From: a virus | Lineage: Duplodnaviria > Caudoviricetes | DNA: 64,000 nt | Direction: 5' to 3' (one strand) | Virus record (IMG/VR): IMGVR_UViG_3300028582_000252 | Location: 1 to 64,000 of that record | Shown here: piece by piece, positions 1 to 7,192 of the stretch | Layout of the letters: every line of letters begins with the position of its first letter | Position numbering within the stretch: the first letter of the stretch is position 1 | Notes under the pieces: model-generated | Database searches by the model: none | Told to the model about the DNA's origin: nothing | The model's input: the letters and a program-made list of their open reading frames with translations, nothing else | Made by a program: the position numbers and the translations under genes

Positions 1-3000
1 TTATATTGTAAATGCAAGCTGTCCTTCTTTATCAAGATTAATATTTCCATAAATATCAATCTTTTTATACTTTTCTAAAAATCCATTATACGTAACTTGC
101 CCCTTGAAGAATTTTAATATTTCTGATTCATTGGCATCACAATATTTTGCATTTTCACCGCATTCAACTGATTCCAAATCTGCTATTGTTTCACGCGCAG
201 TTATTTGCTTTCTCTCTTCCGTTGTTATTGGCACCGGGAAAAGGTCTGAAGGTGAAATCTTTATATCGTTCCTTGTGCAGATAATAAACACTCTCTTTCT
301 TTTTTGTGGAACCGCATAATCACTTGCCATCAAGGTTCTACCTTCAGTACTATATCCTAACTCAGTAAATAATTTATTTACTTCTCGATATGTTTTCCCG
401 CTCTGGTAGCTGAGAAGCCCCTCAACATTTTCAAAAACAATAACCTTAGGATTTACCCTTTTTACAATGTCAACAAATTCTCTAAATAGCTGATTCCTAG
501 GGTCATCATCTGCCCTGAACCCTGCCATAGAAAACCCCTGACAAGGCGGCCCCCCGCAAATAATATCTGCATGTCCTTCTTTTGCTGCTTTTTCTATTGT
601 AGCCTTTGTTTCAGCCTTTGTTATATCACCACAAAATACATTTATTTCCGGATTATTAATTTTTAAGGTTGTACAGGCACTTTCTTCAATATCATTACTC
701 AATAATGATTCGATTCCAGCCGCTTTAAATCCAGCAGTCATTCCTCCTGCACCGCAAAACAAATCAATCGATTTTGAGCAACCTGTAATATCCTTTATGC
801 GTGTTCCAATTTGGTAAGCAAGTAACGTTGGTACTGCATTACCAACCTGCTTTAGGCATTGTGTTTTATTTCCATAAAAATAATAATCGTCTTTAAAAGC
901 TTGAAATCTTGCGGCTTCCCTTACTGATAACACCCTCTCATGAACTGGGTGAACATATGTCCCATTACCAGGTCTATTGAAATAGGTTGTTATCGTGTAA
1001 CTAGGTTTTTCATAATCAATTCTTCCATACAGTGTTGTACGTCCACCAGTTTCAGTTATTCTCTTTAGTCTTTTAGATTTATTAACAGTTTCAATAGGGA
1101 TATCTTTCCAGCTACCCCCTTGTGGAACATTCTTTATCATTTCCAAATCCAAGTTGCTTAGTTTGAAAGTCGTATGATTAAGAATATGCCCTTTATACAA
1201 TGCCATAAACTTTGTTGTTATACCTTTAGCCACATTAATTTCAAACTTGCTAAGTCCATTCAAATGATTGTCAAGGCTGATCTCACCACTTAAAATCTTA
1301 TGTGACTCTTCATATTTAATGCCCGTGATTATACACTGTAAAGCATTATAATAATCATTTATACATTTAGTTTCATTCATTTTCTTTTCTTCCGGTTCAC
1401 TTATTATACCATAGGCCTTTTTGGCTAGTAACTCTATCTCGTCAATTAAATTTTCGGTTTCTTCTTTTAAATATTGCTGTGTAAGTTTTGAAATCACCTT
1501 TAATTCAGGCGCTTCAACAGGGATTGGAAAACAATCTATTTCGTAATTGTTAATATGATTATTACTACTAGTCATCTTAAATAGCCAATTAATAATTTTT
1601 GTATTAAACAATCCGAGCAAAGCATAAATGTCTATTTCGTACCTGTTCTGTGAAACAGAAATAAAATTACAAGAGTTGCCTAACACATAGTTACATGGCG
1701 CAAAAGCAAATTTAACTCTTCGCTCTTTATTCATATTTGCAATCTGTTGACAAATAATCCTGTCTTGCTCTATGTAATACTTTTTTGGAGTAGTGGAAAC
1801 AAATTCATTTGACACATAAACTTCTTCCTGGGGGTACAATAGTTTATAATATCCAATATCTCTACCTCTCAATAGTGGATACCCGGTATTACTCTCAACA
1901 ATACTGCCTTTATTTGTAGTTAAATCAAGCTCACCACGTAAATTTACTACGAAATCCAAGTCTTTAACTACCGGGAATTTTCTTAACTTTTTTAATATTT
2001 GATATTCCTCTGCCGATACCGCAATTATCGCATTCCCAGTATTTTCATTAATAATATCGTCAATTGATACTACTGCTACATCTGTTGGCTTTCTATAGAA
2101 ATCTTTAGTAATTATTACAGTTTTAGTTTTTTCACCCTTCTTCAATAGAATTGCACTCAAAGCTTGCTGTGCATCAATAAAACCGCTTCCTTCTTCAATT
2201 ACTTTAACCGAGATTATTTTCATATCTTTTAAAATGTGTGTTCGTAATCTCATGCATGTTTTGTCTGACATTATTGATGAAGGAACAAGCAAACTAATAT
2301 ATGCATGCTCATTTGCATATTGATCAATGATTTCCTCAACAAATAATTTATAAAGATTCAATACACCAGTTGTAGAATATTTAAATTTTCCGGATACAAT
2401 TTTTGATATTTCGGCGTATTTATTCTTATCGCTGTTATGCTCCTCTTCGTTACTATATTGACCTTTTTCAGCTTTCAAGTTCTTATATGGTGGATTAGTT
2501 GCTATTATATCAAATCCATCTTTTACAATATCTGCCGTGAAAACATCATTGATACTAATATACTCCAATGTGGATGATGTAACATCCACTAATAATCCAG
2601 ACCCTATATGCTCCGAGAAATACAAATCTGGTAATTCAATATTCCAAAATGCTAGTGCCAATAGTTTCAATGACTTTTTATACCCTTCAAGTGCATCCTT
2701 ATTTACATCTGCTACATAAATATTATTAAGAAGAATCATTGCTTCATCACTGCTAATTCCCGTATTCCTTACGGCTTTAATATATGAAAAAACAAAGTTG
2801 CCAGCACCAACACAGGGTTCAAAAAAACGATATTGAACTATTCTCTTGTCACTTCTCTTTAGATTATCAACTAATTCTCCCATCATAACATCTGTTAACT
2901 TCAAATCTGTATAGTAGCTTCCCGTTCTTTTGCGAACTAAATCATCCATCTCTGTTTCAATAAATTTACCTCTATTATTCAAGGAAGCCCACATTCCTAT

Positions 3001-3057
3001 TTCGTCTATATTATACACGTCGCTCTCCTTATACAACTTCGCTACCATATAATGCAA
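1..3057 (-). CDS. Fused m6A + circularly permuted m5C DNA methyltransferase (Alw26I/Eco31I/Esp3I family)
   Basis: N-half has FFEPCVGAGNF and NPPY. C-half has motifs IX/X (REAARFQAF, QVGNAVP) before I (DLFCGAGG), IV (GPPCQGFS), VI (ENV) and VIII (QKRKR). Stop codon at 1-3. Confidence 0.9.
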   Translation of the reverse strand: MHYMVAKLYKESDVYNIDEIGMWASLNNRGKFIETEMDDLVRKRTGSYYTDLKLTDVMMGELVDNLKRSDKRIVQYRFFEPCVGAGNFVFSYIKAVRNTGISSDEAMILLNNIYVADVNKDALEGYKKSLKLLALAFWNIELPDLYFSEHIGSGLLVDVTSSTLEYISINDVFTADIVKDGFDIIATNPPYKNLKAEKGQYSNEEEHNSDKNKYAEISKIVSGKFKYSTTGVLNLYKLFVEEIIDQYANEHAYISLLVPSSIMSDKTCMRLRTHILKDMKIISVKVIEEGSGFIDAQQALSAILLKKGEKTKTVIITKDFYRKPTDVAVVSIDDIINENTGNAIIAVSAEEYQILKKLRKFPVVKDLDFVVNLRGELDLTTNKGSIVESNTGYPLLRGRDIGYYKLLYPQEEVYVSNEFVSTTPKKYYIEQDRIICQQIANMNKERRVKFAFAPCNYVLGNSCNFISVSQNRYEIDIYALLGLFNTKIINWLFKMTSSNNHINNYEIDCFPIPVEAPELKVISKLTQQYLKEETENLIDEIELLAKKAYGIISEPEEKKMNETKCINDYYNALQCIITGIKYEESHKILSGEISLDNHLNGLSKFEINVAKGITTKFMALYKGHILNHTTFKLSNLDLEMIKNVPQGGSWKDIPIETVNKSKRLKRITETGGRTTLYGRIDYEKPSYTITTYFNRPGNGTYVHPVHERVLSVREAARFQAFKDDYYFYGNKTQCLKQVGNAVPTLLAYQIGTRIKDITGCSKSIDLFCGAGGMTAGFKAAGIESLLSNDIEESACTTLKINNPEINVFCGDITKAETKATIEKAAKEGHADIICGGPPCQGFSMAGFRADDDPRNQLFREFVDIVKRVNPKVIVFENVEGLLSYQSGKTYREVNKLFTELGYSTEGRTLMASDYAVPQKRKRVFIICTRNDIKISPSDLFPVPITTEERKQITARETIADLESVECGENAKYCDANESEILKFFKGQVTYNGFLEKYKKIDIYGNINLDKEGQLAFTI

Positions 3058-3371
3058 TTAATGAAGTTCGACAAATCACTTCAATTAGTATATTATGCTC
3101 TTTTCAATGGTTATAGCAAGTAAAATCGAATCTATTAATCACTCTAATTCTTATCAACTAGCGCCTTTAGATTAGCCTATTATACATCTAAACTATCAAC
3201 TCAATTATGGAAATCTATGCATCCCATCAGCACGCTTCGCCTTTGATTATACCATCAAGTCGACCCTCTGAATGCCTTTGATTTTACTTGTTTTCCGGCA
3301 TCCCCAGGGTTCATATTTTTCTTTGATGCAAACCACGCAACCTATTGATTTCAAGCCTTTTGTACACTATC

Positions 3372-3410
3372 CTATTTTATCTTTGACATCAATACAACAC
3401 TCTCAACGTG
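3372..3410 (-). other. Orphan rlmD/rumA-like 3' end; inferred att junction (left boundary of element B)
   Basis: Minus strand CACGTTGAGAGTGTTGTATTGATGTCAAAGATAAAATAG = HVESVVLMSKIK*, the C-terminal motif of TrmA/RlmD methyltransferases, with no upstream gene body. Similar to 33268-33309. Confidence 0.8.
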
Positions 3411-3491
3411 CCTCGAGACGACAACAGGCACGTCGTTTAAACTCGGTCGATAATGGTATCTGTTTCTTATCTTTAATTACAATCTGGTCGT

Positions 3492-3623
3492 TTACAGTAA
3501 ACTTATTTCTATGATGTATTCCGGTGTTACTGATATTTCTCCTCCGTGCAGTGTGACTATCTTTTTTGCGACCGCAAGCCCGAGCCCTGCACCGCCGGTA
3601 TCAGATGAACGTGCTTCATCCAG
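3492..3623 (-). pseudogene. 3' fragment of a VanS-like sensor histidine kinase (HATPase_c G2 box)
   Basis: Unlisted minus frame reads LDEARSSDTGGAGLGLAVAKKIVTLHGGEISV...*; the upstream kinase sequence is absent. Confidence 0.75.
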
Positions 3624-3717
3624 ATATGCTCCGGCTATATGCGGAAAATTATCCAAAGGCAAAATCAATCGAAAATGTCTGACCGAAGGTCACAAAAATA
3701 CCGAAAGCCAGAATAAC

Positions 3718-3757
3718 AATTTCCCATATTTCAGATATTTTTATTTTTGGGAAATAG
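3718..3757. repeat. 40-bp palindromic site, copy 1 (overlaps the stop of the AAA gene)
   Basis: aATTTCCCA-N21-TGGGAAATag; 29/40 identical to 4991-5030 without gaps. Confidence 0.8.
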
Positions 3758-4955
3758 TCTTTTGGTCTTTTCTCAGCCAATTCGCTACATCGACTATTTT
3801 TATTCCTTCATATTGATAATCCTCATGTCTTGTTCTGGCGATCAAAATCTTAGGATAGGCGTCCTTAATCTGTAAAAGAGGAGTTATCTCCCTTTTAAAA
3901 GTACTTTCACCGGAAATATCATCTGAAACCTGAACATAAAATTTCTCATCATGCTTCATTGCAACAAAATCGATTTCTTTTTTATAAAGAACACCGGTAT
4001 AGATTTCATATCCTCTACGCATCAGTTCAATGGCAACTATATTCTCAATCATTCTGCCATAGTCCATATTTCTTGTTCCCAGCTTTGCATAGCGGAATGC
4101 ATGGTCACTCAGATAATACTTATCGCTTGAGGCAAGATATTTTTTTCCACGAATGTCATATCTTCTGACTTTATAAAAGGCAAAAGCATTACATAAATAT
4201 TCCAAGTATTTTCCAACCGTCTTATGGTTGATCCTGTCATTGTTTTTCGTCATAGTATCTGCAATCTGACGAATAGAGGACAGATTTGCAACGTTGTCCA
4301 TCAGGAAATCTGATATACGATCCATCAATACAGTTTTTCTGATTTTGTACTTTTGCCTGATATCACGAATAATCAGCGTATCAAATACATCTTCGATATA
4401 GTGATACCGTTCTTCCTGCTCACGGTACACATAAGAGCCTGACAAACCGCCATCTTTTATATATCTGTCGAACGCTTTGTCCATATCTTCAAGCTGATAA
4501 TATTCCACATACTCTTCAAAGGAAAACGGGAATATCTCTATCTCATAGGTTCTTCCGGTAAACAGCGTCGCCAGATCACTGCTTAATAAAAATGCATTAG
4601 ATCCTGTAACATAAATATCATATTTTCCAGAAGAATGCAGACTGTTTATCGTAAGTTCAAATTGCGGACACATCTGTACTTCATCCGCAAAGAGATAATT
4701 ACTCTTTCCCCACTGATAGTGTTCCTCTACATATTTATTAAGAGCATGATATTCTTTTAAATCTTCAAATTGCAAACTGGTATAGTCAATATAGATAATG
4801 TTTGCATCTTTATCTGTATTTTCAAGCCATTCAATGTAACTTTCCATCAGCCTTGACTTGCCGCTGCGCCTGACGCCTGTAATTACTTTAATATCCGGAG
4901 TGCCTTTCAAACGTTTCAGTTTCTCAAGATAAGTGCTTCGCTCTATTATCTTCAT
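3741..4955 (-). CDS. AAA_14 ATPase with DUF4143 (wHTH + PD-(D/E)xK-like) C-terminus
   Basis: Walker A GVRRSGKS, Walker B FADEVQ, TGSNA, GG motif, C-terminal EIDFV..YVQV; GAGG RBS. Confidence 0.9.
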   Translation of the reverse strand: MKIIERSTYLEKLKRLKGTPDIKVITGVRRSGKSRLMESYIEWLENTDKDANIIYIDYTSLQFEDLKEYHALNKYVEEHYQWGKSNYLFADEVQMCPQFELTINSLHSSGKYDIYVTGSNAFLLSSDLATLFTGRTYEIEIFPFSFEEYVEYYQLEDMDKAFDRYIKDGGLSGSYVYREQEERYHYIEDVFDTLIIRDIRQKYKIRKTVLMDRISDFLMDNVANLSSIRQIADTMTKNNDRINHKTVGKYLEYLCNAFAFYKVRRYDIRGKKYLASSDKYYLSDHAFRYAKLGTRNMDYGRMIENIVAIELMRRGYEIYTGVLYKKEIDFVAMKHDEKFYVQVSDDISGESTFKREITPLLQIKDAYPKILIARTRHEDYQYEGIKIVDVANWLRKDQKTISQK

Positions 4956-4989
4956 TCATGCCACCTCTTCCGAATTTATTGTATCAGTT

Positions 4990-5030
4990 CTATTTCCCAA
5001 TATCAATATTATTTTGATTTTGGGAAATAG
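4990..5030. repeat. 41-bp palindromic site, copy 2 (upstream of the AAA gene)
   Basis: CTATTTCCCAA-T-ATCAA-N7-TTGAT-T-TTGGGAAATAG. Confidence 0.85.
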
Positions 5031-5090
5031 GGTCCTATATTTCTTTTAGTACATTATTGACCAGTATCATATTTTCTCCCCTATCAAATT

Positions 5091-5309
5091 CTAATTTGTA
5101 TATTCCCACTTTGACGAGAATTCCTTTGCAAGTGCTATAATCTGATCGTAATTCATAACATTGGACAGGCGTTTCTTTCCATTCAGAGCAAGCAGCCTCA
5201 TCTGGGTAGTGACACTACCCAGTTCATTATTGTTTTTTATAAGTTTCGCTTTCAGATATTTCCAATAAATAGCGCCCAGCTGAAAGCCAGACGCTAAAGT
5301 CATTTTCAC
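5091..5309 (-). pseudogene. Fragment resembling the BRO-like N-terminal domain of Firmicutes Fic proteins
   Basis: YWKYLKAKL..NNELGSVTTQMRLLALNGKKRL..YDQIIALAKEF; too short to be complete. Confidence 0.5.
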
Positions 5310-5425
5310 TTTTCTATCTCAACCTTGATCCCTGCTTTGAACTCCACCTCGTAATAACTGTCATAAACAGTGATACGCTCAATATACCTGCGAACCATCT
5401 GTTCATCATAGTCAATAAGCATATC
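5306..5425 (-). pseudogene. C-terminal 39 codons of a large serine recombinase
   Basis: Unlisted frame DMLIDYDEQMVRRYIERITVYDSYYEVEFKAGIKVEIEK* aligns with the end of 37469-39037 ([27 protein letters not shown]). Confidence 0.85.
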
Positions 5426-6564
5426 TCACTATAATCTTCATCTTCTATTTTTGCTCCTACGGCGCATGCAAACAAACTTGTAATAAGAATGTATTTATCT
5501 TCCTCGTCTCCCGGTGGGAAGACAAGAACGAAAGCTGTGATATCGGTAGTAGACGAAAGGTCCAGTCCTCCGTAGCAGACCCTGCCTTCAAGAGATTTTT
5601 CATCAACGGGGAACGCGCATGCATCCCATTTATCCATAGGCATCCATCTCACCGACTGCTTCACCCACTGATCCAGTCTTAGCTGCCTGAATGCATTCTC
5701 TTCTCCTGGGTTCTGTTTTGCCGATTCACATGCGGCTTCGACCTTATCGATCCCGATCGTAATGCCAAGAGAGGGATTTGCTTTCTTCCATACCTCCGGA
5801 TCTGTCCAGTCATCATTTACATCAGCGCCATATATCACAGGGTAGAATGTAGGATCTACTTTTCTCCCTTCCAGTATGTCCTTTGCTTTCTGATGTGTCT
5901 CATAACATATGGAGTTGGTATCGCTCCCTGCTGTAGTTATGAGAAAGTATAGAGGCTGCATCCTTGCGTCTCCGGAGCCTTTTGTCATTACATCGAACAG
6001 TTTCCTGTTAGGCTGCGTATGGAGTTCGTCGAATACTACACCGTGAATATTGAAGCCGTGTTTGGAATATGCTTCTGCCGATAATACCTGATAAAAGCTG
6101 TTCGTCGGTTGGTAAATTATCCGCTTCTGCGATGCCAGTATCTTTACCCTCTTTGCGAGCGCGGGACACATCTTGACCATGTCTGCTGCCACATCAAATA
6201 CGATCGCAGCCTGCTGCCTGTCTGCAGCGCATCCATACACTTCAGCGCGCTGTTCATTGTCCCCGCAGCAGAGGAGAAGCGCTACCGCTGCAGCAAGCTC
6301 AGACTTGCCATTTTTTTTGCTGATCTCAATATATGCAGTGTTGAACTGCCTATATCCATTAGGCTTTAGGATCCCAAAGATATCTCGCACGATTCTTTCC
6401 TGCCAGTCGATAAGCTCGAACGGCTTTCCGGCCCAGGTGCCTTTGGTATGACATAGGCACTCAATGAAACCGACTGCGTAATCGGCAGCGTTTTCGTTAT
6501 ATGAGGACTTTTCGGCCATGAACTTTGTCGGTTTGTATTCTTTAAGCTTTCTCAATCCTTTCAC
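5314..6564 (-). pseudogene. terL: Truncated terminase large subunit (similarity stops at ~5485, ~360 aa)
   Basis: Nearly collinear with 58008-59609 up to FVLVFPP.DE.DK(Y/F).L, then unrelated read-through; most of the nuclease domain is missing. Confidence 0.9.
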
Positions 6565-6636
6565 CCCAATAAAAATAGCAGCCGTAGCTGCTGCACTGCC
6601 AAAAGAGCCCTGAGGCTCTGATGGCTCTATTCCATT

Positions 6637-6876
6637 TTACAGTTCCGTGAACAATGAATGCCCGAAACACTCTCTGCAGTCTTTACATAGCAGATCTTCA
6701 AAATCGCCTTCCGCGAGGCTTCCGCAGTATCTGCAGAGATGATGTCCTTTGACAGGGGCGATGACGAGGATCTTCTCGCCTTTTGATTCAAGCACTTTTC
6801 TTATGCTTTCCAGTTCGTCCTTCCTCACATTGCCGCTTTCATAGACATGCTCTTCCGTCTGGATATAATATTTCAT
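6637..6876 (-). CDS. Small hypothetical phage protein with CxxC..CxxCxxC (possible Zn finger)
   Basis: AGGAGG RBS; CRYC and CKDCREC motifs. Confidence 0.7.
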   Translation of the reverse strand: MKYYIQTEEHVYESGNVRKDELESIRKVLESKGEKILVIAPVKGHHLCRYCGSLAEGDFEDLLCKDCRECFGHSLFTEL

Positions 6877-6892
6877 ATGGTCCTCCTTCGGA

Positions 6893-7162
6893 TCAGGCTT
6901 CGATCTCAGAGTGCTTCACGATCAGCCTGTTTACCTGACAGTCAAAATCATGTACTGCCATCCCCAATGCCCTCATCTTTGCAGCGGCTATCGTTATGTC
7001 CTCGATATGCGAAGCGTATCCAGCTCCGAAGTTTTCAGCCTGTGACCAGTCCATTTTCTCAAGGCATTCTATAGCTTCCTTCCTTGCTCTTTCGAACTGC
7101 TGCGTCGCTTCATTGAAATCGTAGATGAGGCTTTCTCTGTATGCTTTCATGTTCTTATCCAT
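6893..7162 (-). CDS. Hypothetical phage protein
   Basis: AGGGAG RBS before MDKNMK; follows the conserved promoter-like motif. Confidence 0.65.
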   Translation of the reverse strand: MDKNMKAYRESLIYDFNEATQQFERARKEAIECLEKMDWSQAENFGAGYASHIEDITIAAAKMRALGMAVHDFDCQVNRLIVKHSEIEA

Positions 7163-7192
7163 TCCTTTATTCTCCCTTCTTTTCGGTATGTG

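Follow-up and report, generated by a model that had tools for sequence, protein, structure and literature searches.

The 64,000-nt window analysed here belongs to the provirus record IMGVR_UViG_3300028582_000252 (84,151 bases in total) and carries, on its minus strand, a 404-aa AAA_14/DUF4143 ATPase gene that lies between two related palindromes, referred to below as U (upstream of the gene) and D (downstream of it). On balance, we favour the reading that this gene is governed by its own operator and forms, together with the palindromes that delimit it, a portable module. The components of this reading differ in strength. It is very likely that U is the cognate operator of the adjacent protein, and the palindromes probably delimit a discrete unit of gain and loss. 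A dedicated site-specific mechanism behind such gains and losses is a tentative suggestion that falls somewhat short of probable, while catalysis by the encoded protein itself is distinctly unlikely. Among related loci, present, absent and array states delimited by the palindromes are observed. The features of the window's locus are the following.

3741..4955, minus strand: 404-aa gene, AAA+ ATPase with a putative winged helix and a restriction-endonuclease-like part (open reading frame (ORF), Pfam AAA_14 and DUF4143, PADLOC PDC-S01)
4990..5030, no strand assigned: U, upstream 41-bp palindrome and inferred cognate operator, with the -35 box in its gene-proximal arm (pattern scan, 42 of 42 loci)
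4978..5006, minus strand: predicted sigma-70-type promoter with -35 TTGATA (5006-5001), 17-nt spacer and TG-extended -10 TACAAT (4983-4978), matching 10 of 12 positions
3718..3757, no strand assigned: D, downstream palindrome, a diverged copy of U that overlaps the stop codon (pattern scan, kept in relatives)
3670..3717, minus strand: tail of about 45 nt after D, common to loci L005 and L083 (alignments; the DNA beyond differs)

Both palindromes match the pattern ATTTCCCA-N21-TGGGAAAT, the matches spanning 3719-3755 and 4992-5028. Relaxing the pattern to as many as two mismatches adds no third match in the window, the entire 84,151-base record holds the same two pattern sites and no others, and the pattern did not occur in any of 100 dinucleotide-preserving shuffles. 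The copies are spaced 1273 nt apart and are identical at 29 of 39 positions without gaps. U is a near-perfect palindrome, consisting of 20-nt arms that are 90% complementary and are separated by a single nucleotide, and it ends 36 nt ahead of the ATG. D contains the final five codons and the stop codon (3741-3743), the C-terminus of the protein being ...KTISQK. An earlier annotation made from the window's letters alone (the original prediction) had described two palindromes bracketing an AAA_14/DUF4143 gene, one about 35 bp before the start and the other supplying the last codons and stop; pattern scan, ORF and Pfam matches bear out this description.

The case for U as an operator comes from a homolog set of 58 loci from species-representative genomes, 42 of which include enough upstream DNA. 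Upstream palindromes were placed by a G/C-weighted scan, which avoids unrelated A/T-rich inverted repeats. A 41-bp palindrome was found 61-133 nt before the start in all 42 loci (41 by the scan, L048 by hand). A -35-like hexamer (TTGATA, TTGATT, TTTACT or TTGACT) always lies within the gene-proximal arm region and is followed by a TATAAT-like box, and in the window the TTGATA/TACAAT promoter listed above ranks first among the promoter-like sites of the region. The arms occur as TTTCCCA/TGGGAAA, TTTCGCA/TGCGAAA, TTCCGAA/TTCGGAA, TTAGCCA/TGGCTAA, TTACCCA/TGGGTAA and TTCCCCA/TGGGGAA, so that complementarity is kept across lineages while the letters change. In the 42-row alignment, 13 co-varying outer positions per arm flank an A/T-rich middle of 15. 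At eight of the 13 paired arm positions both partners change (66 cells; 42 loci); position 8/34, for example, is C-G in 22 loci, G-C in 20 and unpaired in none. The covariation score is 0.322, compared to 0.152 in shuffles (0 of 500 reach the observed value) and at most 0.097 with slid partners. Since the 41-nt windows were picked for best arm pairing, the share of paired cells is inflated, but the double-sided changes and the slid controls are independent of this choice. The separate 7-bp core that had been proposed for these sites is not borne out; U has no such asymmetric core.

U sits upstream of the -10 box and outside the gene's own transcript, and its symmetry has therefore presumably been selected at the DNA level. 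Those paralogs that were examined in genome G004 have different repeats ahead of their starts, so the reader of the site is most simply the adjacent protein and not a host factor. A conserved and co-varying inverted repeat over the core promoter of its own gene is the arrangement expected of a self-regulated gene, and these comparisons suggest that the protein probably represses its own transcription. An operator had been set aside as the main role of these sites in the original prediction, a dismissal that the family-wide, promoter-embedded palindrome with its co-varying arms (42/42 loci) does not allow. The arrangement has a parallel in other autoregulated genes: the controller proteins of restriction-modification systems likewise act through an inverted repeat over the -35 box, the C-box, whose half-sites change together. 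In contrast to these regulators, the regulator here would be an AAA+ ATPase of 404 aa that includes a nuclease-fold domain rather than a small helix-turn-helix protein, the half-site centres are 29 bp apart, and in some lineages a second copy stands at the 3' end of the gene.

This second copy was sought with each locus's own arms as probe, from -60 to +400 of the stop codon and with at most 4 mismatches in the 20 arm positions. A cognate downstream copy is present in six of 41 genome loci, namely L004 (identical to the window), L005, L007, L008, L010 and L048. Elsewhere in the 41 loci, over the remaining 0.8-5 kb of each, the best probe match has at least 5 mismatches. The downstream copy follows the specificity of its own lineage, being of the TTTCCCA type in the window clade, TTAGCCA in L010, TTACCGA in L048 and TTTCGAAAG in L067, a paralog with its own repeat at both ends. 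In L010 the upstream and downstream copies match at 42 of 43 positions, a count that takes in the spacer. D is kept in L005, L007 and L008 as well as in the lineage of L153 (65% protein identity), with both arms retained and the middle diverging. Its overlap with the stop codon is limited to some lineages; in L007, L008, L010, L048 and L181 the copy follows the stop. Altogether, 20 of 59 distinct proteins are accompanied by a downstream copy. On the tree of these 59 proteins, for which the downstream-copy labels of L048, L067, L104, L153, L157, L173 and L184 were set by hand beforehand, its presence requires at least six state changes, five of which are forced by well-supported branches; omitting L067 leaves five. 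Some genes have tandem operators ahead of them (L048, L050, L141). A scan of metagenomes for the TTTCCCA-type pattern returned at least 125 stretches, of which 80 were fetched; all metagenome counts below refer to these 80, and many further paired cassettes are among the matches listed. D was also considered as an RNA hairpin or terminator and rejected in this role, as there is no terminator-like site within 3600-5150 and the RNA fold of the D region (3650-3765) is not unusual (z -1.34).

Comparison of related loci places the edges of similarity at or close to the palindromes. L004 aligns with L007 and L008 (76-78% DNA identity) over 2926-4237 only, a stretch bounded by the outer edges of U and D, and the 3-kb flanks are unrelated. 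Between L153 and L189 (88%) similarity stops at the outer edge of D, and between L153 and the window (68%) it spans exactly U to D. The alignment of L004 with L005 (92%) runs from the outer edge of U to 45 nt beyond D, and that with L006 begins 12 nt before U. In L083, whose copy of the gene is truncated and adjoins an AbiE module, D is followed by this 45-nt tail as well. The upstream boundary is thus sharp, and the downstream boundary lies at D or, in the window's sub-lineage, slightly past it. The synteny break at the palindromes anticipated by the original prediction holds for the outer edge of U and, in L007, L008, L189 and the window compared to L153, for the outer edge of D, but falls about 45 nt past D in L005 and L083. 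It is possible that in the window's sub-lineage this tail is part of the unit. A separate repeat is found in L008, where the 146 nt right behind the downstream palindrome (4244-4389) have a second copy, 79% identical, 8 kb farther along the same contig (G003:C1:165376-165521) and the last ~50 nt match three other genomes; this sequence may be a small dispersed repeat.

Occupied and empty alleles of the same site occur in an element family with a conjugative-element-like backbone of ArdC-N/LPD28/YodL and MutS_I-domain genes. In L157 and at least ten other contigs, the U-gene-D unit stands between two backbone genes. In L160, L133 and L205, among the matches listed, both flanks of L157 (94-96% identical) are joined at a single palindrome, and these alleles are 1267 bp shorter than L157, which is the exact palindrome-to-palindrome distance. 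Occupied and empty alleles therefore differ by one repeat-to-repeat unit, as expected of a site-specific cassette. At least two contigs (L176/177 and L196/197) carry an array, in which U, the gene and D are followed by a 259-270-aa ORF, a third palindrome and the same flank; the additional ORF has no Pfam match. In another context, the contig of L161-163 has D and a further palindrome on either side of a HipA-like gene (just below the Pfam cut-off) and a parA fragment. Within this contig, positions 1963-3370 of L161 hold the HipA-like gene and then a decayed copy of the first ~50 parA codons, and an intact parA-parB pair begins right after the next palindrome; it looks as though a palindrome within parA had once been the site of a rearrangement.

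Palindromes also occur alone. We counted a site as solo if it has no neighbouring gene with 45% or more identity to the protein of the window, a definition under which the third palindromes of arrays and the sites of distant paralogs are included. The 80 of at least 125 loci contain 84 exact-pattern sites, 77 of them with an A/T-rich spacer; these 77 divide into 29 upstream, 4 downstream, 29 solo and 15 solo with a short flank, in a tally that includes three contigs more than once. By context, the solo sites in the matches listed (44 loci) group into 17 clusters. Solo sites are also present in genomes G008 and G040, in neither of whose assemblies a close homolog was found. At the cassette position of the element family above, or at similar ones, other occupants are found. 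In at least twelve contigs, an AbiEi-like/AbiEii module begins exactly at the edge of the solo palindrome, without a second palindrome, and replaces ~72 nt of flank. In at least seven contigs, a distant 486-aa AAA_14/DUF4143 paralog lies on the opposite side of a solo palindrome. AbiEi/AbiEii modules stand directly beside solo palindromes in L098, L083, L123 and L140, which represent at least two unrelated contexts; in L083 the module takes the place of the ATPase gene's 5' portion.

By its sequence, the encoded protein is a full-length member of the PDC-S01 or AAA_14 plus DUF4143 (COG1373) family. Pfam assigns AAA_14 (1.3e-31, 109.7 bits, cut-off 27) and DUF4143 (5.4e-18, 65.7 bits, cut-off 28.1), and the PADLOC profile PDLC04787 (PDC-S01) aligns residues 1-397 with profile positions 6-409 of 412 (E 3.9e-145). 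NCBIfam gave no match, a sequence search found no relative of solved structure, and a protein search confirmed none among viral contigs. Both Walker motifs, A (GVRRSGKS) and B (DEVQ), are conserved, with G27, R29, R30, G32, K33, S34, D91, E92 and Q94 invariant in 20 sequences. The nuclease-fold motif reads E304/E310..D329..Q342-V-S344, of which E304, E310 and D329 are invariant. Its third element is not (D/E)xK but Q342-V-S344 in the window clade and, in 15 distant paralogs, Q-x-[SACT]; judging from conservation, the invariant K334 could substitute for the catalytic lysine. A structure model has an alpha-beta-beta-beta-alpha-beta core topology at residues 299-373 and, between the ATPase and this core, three helices and a beta hairpin (approximately residues 205-285) that may represent a winged helix. 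Foldseek matched the model to archaeal Walker-type ATPases (2qen, 2fna) and to Cdc6/Orc1 (1fnn, 2qby, 2v1u) at E 3e-6 to 5e-4; origin recognition complex (ORC) subunits, STAND ATPases, DnaA and MuB are further fold matches with low template-modelling scores (TM-scores). The family can be abundant within one genome and can occur in tandem. G004, the 2.3-Mb genome that contains L010 and is labelled an uncultured Spirochaetales metagenome-assembled genome, has 28 matches to the protein family, and L055 holds three ATPase genes in a row (3001-7190), the second and third assigned by their ORF starts without a family scan.

We propose that the protein binds its own 41-bp palindrome over the -35 box, as a symmetric dimer or a higher oligomer, and thereby represses its own transcription. 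D would be a second, diverged copy of the same recognition site, and promoter, gene and palindromes would together constitute a self-contained module of ~1.3 kb. Recombination between the two cognate palindromes would be the likeliest route of gain and loss, excising the module with one palindrome left behind and inserting it next to a solo palindrome. The acting agent might be the encoded protein or host recombination at repeated sites.

A number of observations weigh against this proposal, in whole or in part. Thirty-five of the 41 genome homologs are without a downstream copy, which is therefore not required for the function of the gene or for its general spread; the expectation that homologs have their own paired palindromes holds in several lineages, each with its own specificity, but not in these 35. 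In the window's own sub-lineage (L005, L083), similarity overshoots D by ~45 nt. Exact empty sites are confined to one element family, all of whose cassettes have one orientation, and for the locus in the window no empty allele turned up. The empty sites with one palindrome that the original prediction had called for are thus available for L157 (in L160, L133 and L205), but not for the window's locus. Searches on behalf of L005, L008 and L010, each in 41 genomes (its own and 40 relatives), likewise gave no empty site, though these relatives are too diverged for the result to be informative; in the same sets, the flanks are not adjacent and a solo palindrome beside ychF is absent. The solo palindrome is identical to U and there is no visible U/D hybrid, so that the crossover point cannot be placed; the outer arm of D differs from the solo site at 5 of 33 positions, a rate similar to that of the adjacent flank (7 of 39; manual count). 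The tree of the flanks (1.2 kb, 23 loci) has 3 of 20 branches well supported, and the four allele states are scattered on it like shuffled labels (10 changes versus 9.6). Judged by this tree, a single old insertion or deletion spread by homologous recombination would fit as well as repeated events. Not every loss respects the palindromes either. L165 is without the 37%-identical paralog gene of L141, and the deletion does not end at palindromes; the palindrome and the repeats after it are kept, and a solo palindrome is left over. L193 is without the cassette of the L161-163 context and has only one arm left. With regard to the protein, the family has no classical (D/E)xK triad, and confidence in the structure model is middling, with a predicted local distance difference test (pLDDT) value of 64.7 and fold matches at TM-scores of 0.2-0.3. 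The cassette claim of the original prediction is thus supported as far as a unit of gain and loss is concerned, on exact empty sites and edges, but not with regard to mechanism, for which repeat-mediated deletion is still a rival.

The competing explanation that survives best, although we consider it rather unlikely, is that D is an auxiliary operator, acting through looping, as a roadblock at the gene end or in control of the next gene, and that no dedicated mobility is involved. Empty sites would then result from slippage or recombination between 41-bp direct repeats, and the gene would spread by ordinary horizontal transfer and by homologous exchange within larger mobile elements. Such a scheme accommodates the family-wide operator upstream, the position of D directly before the next ORF in arrays and the overshoot of similarity past D in the window's lineage. 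Deletion between direct repeats would yield exactly one repeat, as observed, generic deletions of related genes do occur (L165 versus L141), and the flank tree is compatible with a single old polymorphism that recombination has reshuffled. However, at ~92% DNA identity (L004 versus L005, L006 and L083) the flanks would be expected to align, and they do not; in those three comparisons the upstream break falls within 0-12 nt of the palindrome edge. Cognate downstream copies have been gained or lost at least five to six times, unrelated genes are likewise bounded by further palindromes, and D in the window has no following gene to control. Furthermore, the longest run of identity between U and D is 13 nt, and a crossover there would produce a D-like solo end, which is not observed.

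A bolder version of the palindrome-delimited module, which we regard as improbable, is that PDC-S01 is a minimal selfish element and not primarily a defence system, with the protein excising and inserting its own gene, and sometimes a neighbour, at solo palindromes. This would involve ATP-driven assembly of the protein on two palindromes and the cutting and rejoining of DNA there. If true, it would explain the abundance of PDC-S01, its embedding in defence loci and mobile elements, and the dozens of paralogs in some genomes.

It is very improbable that the palindromes are core sites of a tyrosine or serine recombinase of the host or of an element, as in Xer-dif systems, with the ATPase gene as passive cargo. 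The U copies can be read as ~17-nt inverted arms around ~7 central bases, other cargo (the 259-270-aa ORF, the HipA-like gene) lies between such palindromes, and the contexts are conjugative-element-like or prophage DNA. Conjugative elements and prophages encode recombinases. Contrary to this explanation, the arm sequences track the lineage of the adjacent ATPase and not the host: they differ between L053 and L005-L009, all labelled Lachnospiraceae or genera of that family (Acetatifactor, Lachnotalea), and paralogs within G004 have different sites. The sites are also not dispersed, with two in the window's record and two in 2.3-Mb G004, and the ORF lists of the 3-kb flanks of L004, L005, L007 and L008, read without a family scan, contain no common recombinase gene. 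That D is a functionless relic in an accidental position, for example of a tandem duplication of gene and operator, is scarcely credible: tandem paralogs exist (L055, three in a row), as do tandem operators (L048, L050, L141), but between lineages with 65% protein identity D has a diverging middle and yet keeps both arms, the downstream copy recurs with matching specificity in at least five separate tree groups, and no remnant of a second gene lies behind D.

The module of self-operator, gene and second palindrome resembles several known systems in part. Integron cassettes and Xer-dif modules are likewise single-gene units with imperfect palindromes that form arrays and leave one-copy empty sites. 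Integrons are marked by an attC site whose conserved core lies at the boundary of each cassette and by an array headed by attI and the IntI integrase. An integron cassette was rejected, since the ends of the palindrome read CTATTTCCC...GGGAAATAG and show no GTTRRRY-type core. The arrays sit between ArdC-N/LPD28/YodL-type and MutS_I-domain genes, and no integrase was found beside them in the ORF lists of the 2-kb flanks, not all ORFs of which were family-scanned. In contrast to Xer-dif modules there is no 11-6-11 Xer site, and unlike in either system the upstream site doubles as a promoter-operator and the arrays observed hold at most two units. REPtrons (RAYT/TnpA_REP) similarly consist of a single gene bracketed by palindromes that track the gene lineage. 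This candidate was rejected because Pfam finds AAA_14/DUF4143 only and no HUH/Y1 transposase, and because there are two copies in the 84-kb record and two in 2.3-Mb G004, where a REPtron would have its palindrome dispersed in many copies. A transposon or insertion sequence, for which a transposase gene, terminal inverted repeats and a short target-site duplication would be expected, was rejected on the absence of a transposase domain in Pfam and on the presence of the whole 41-bp palindrome in the empty site, which likewise speaks against hairpin ends of the IS200/IS605 type. For a homing endonuclease gene, which on insertion would split and so abolish its recognition site, the intact palindromes on both sides and the identity of U with the solo site of the empty allele were disqualifying. 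Archaeal Orc1/Cdc6 proteins also combine AAA+ and winged-helix parts and lie beside inverted repeats around an A/T-rich stretch near their own gene. Here, by comparison, there is an extra nuclease-fold domain, the structural likeness is at the low TM-scores and pLDDT given above, and nothing bears on replication.

In the available text of one survey, PDC-S01 ranks fourth in frequency among prokaryotic defence candidates, with ~39,000 instances, and is described as the fusion of an ATPase with a domain of the PD-(D/E)XK superfamily (PMC12988326). DUF4143 appears in a survey of the PD-(D/E)XK superfamily, where the accessible portion lists its function as unknown (PMC3424549). PDC-S01 was nominated by its embedding inside other defence systems (10.1101/2024.01.29.577857), and in the available parts of both papers its status as an anti-phage system is that of a candidate through genomic embedding alone (PMC12988326; 10.1101/2024.01.29.577857). 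Eight candidate types, including one PDC-S01 representative, were tested in E. coli against T4, T5 and T7; the accessible text names four systems as protective, and PDC-S01 is not among them (10.1101/2024.09.26.614923). The parts of the PDC-S01 literature that were available make no mention of a palindrome cognate to the protein, of a second copy or of empty sites, and a search that was thin on subscription journals found no published link of AAA_14, DUF4143 or PDC-S01 to palindromes. Paired copies, empty sites and arrays are thus what we add here to a known family. If PDC-S01 genes carry a lineage-specific self-operator and form a palindrome-delimited unit, their embedding may reflect cassette-like mobility as much as defence. 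Our results also supply a defined 41-bp candidate DNA ligand for a protein without a known substrate, as well as natural pairs of occupied and empty alleles.

The surroundings of the cassette in the window appear disrupted. Assembled contigs from four public runs span the two palindromes together with the flanking DNA of the window and depart from the window behind 5424; these contigs contain no joint across 3718-5030, a result that bears neither way on excision. In contigs from runs X11, X12 and X14, the match to the window stops at 5424, past which X12 and X14 continue with a common different sequence. The terminase large-subunit gene (5314-6564, minus strand) is shortened, its nuclease domain covering profile positions 4-124 of 286 and its final ~54 residues being unrelated. 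Since the terminase is cut short and the run contigs diverge behind 5424, the block 3176-5424 that holds the cassette looks like an insertion or junction disrupting a prophage. Of the two gene fragments reported beside the palindromes, the kinase is real: 3492-3668 (minus strand) encodes a C-terminal histidine-kinase fragment (Pfam HATPase_c, 1.1e-7). The label 'Fic-like' for 5091-5309 (minus strand) could not be upheld, as this 72-aa ORF has no Pfam or NCBIfam match; it has a faint likeness (E 0.035) to the N-terminus of one L006 protein, presumably RhuM-like, an assignment made without a family scan. The kinase piece and the 72-aa ORF are not halves of one gene. At the start of the window, a long ORF of more than 1018 aa (1-3057, minus strand), which extends past the window start, encodes a fusion of a C5-cytosine methylase domain with an Eco57I-type N6-adenine methylase that has a TaqI_C specificity domain.

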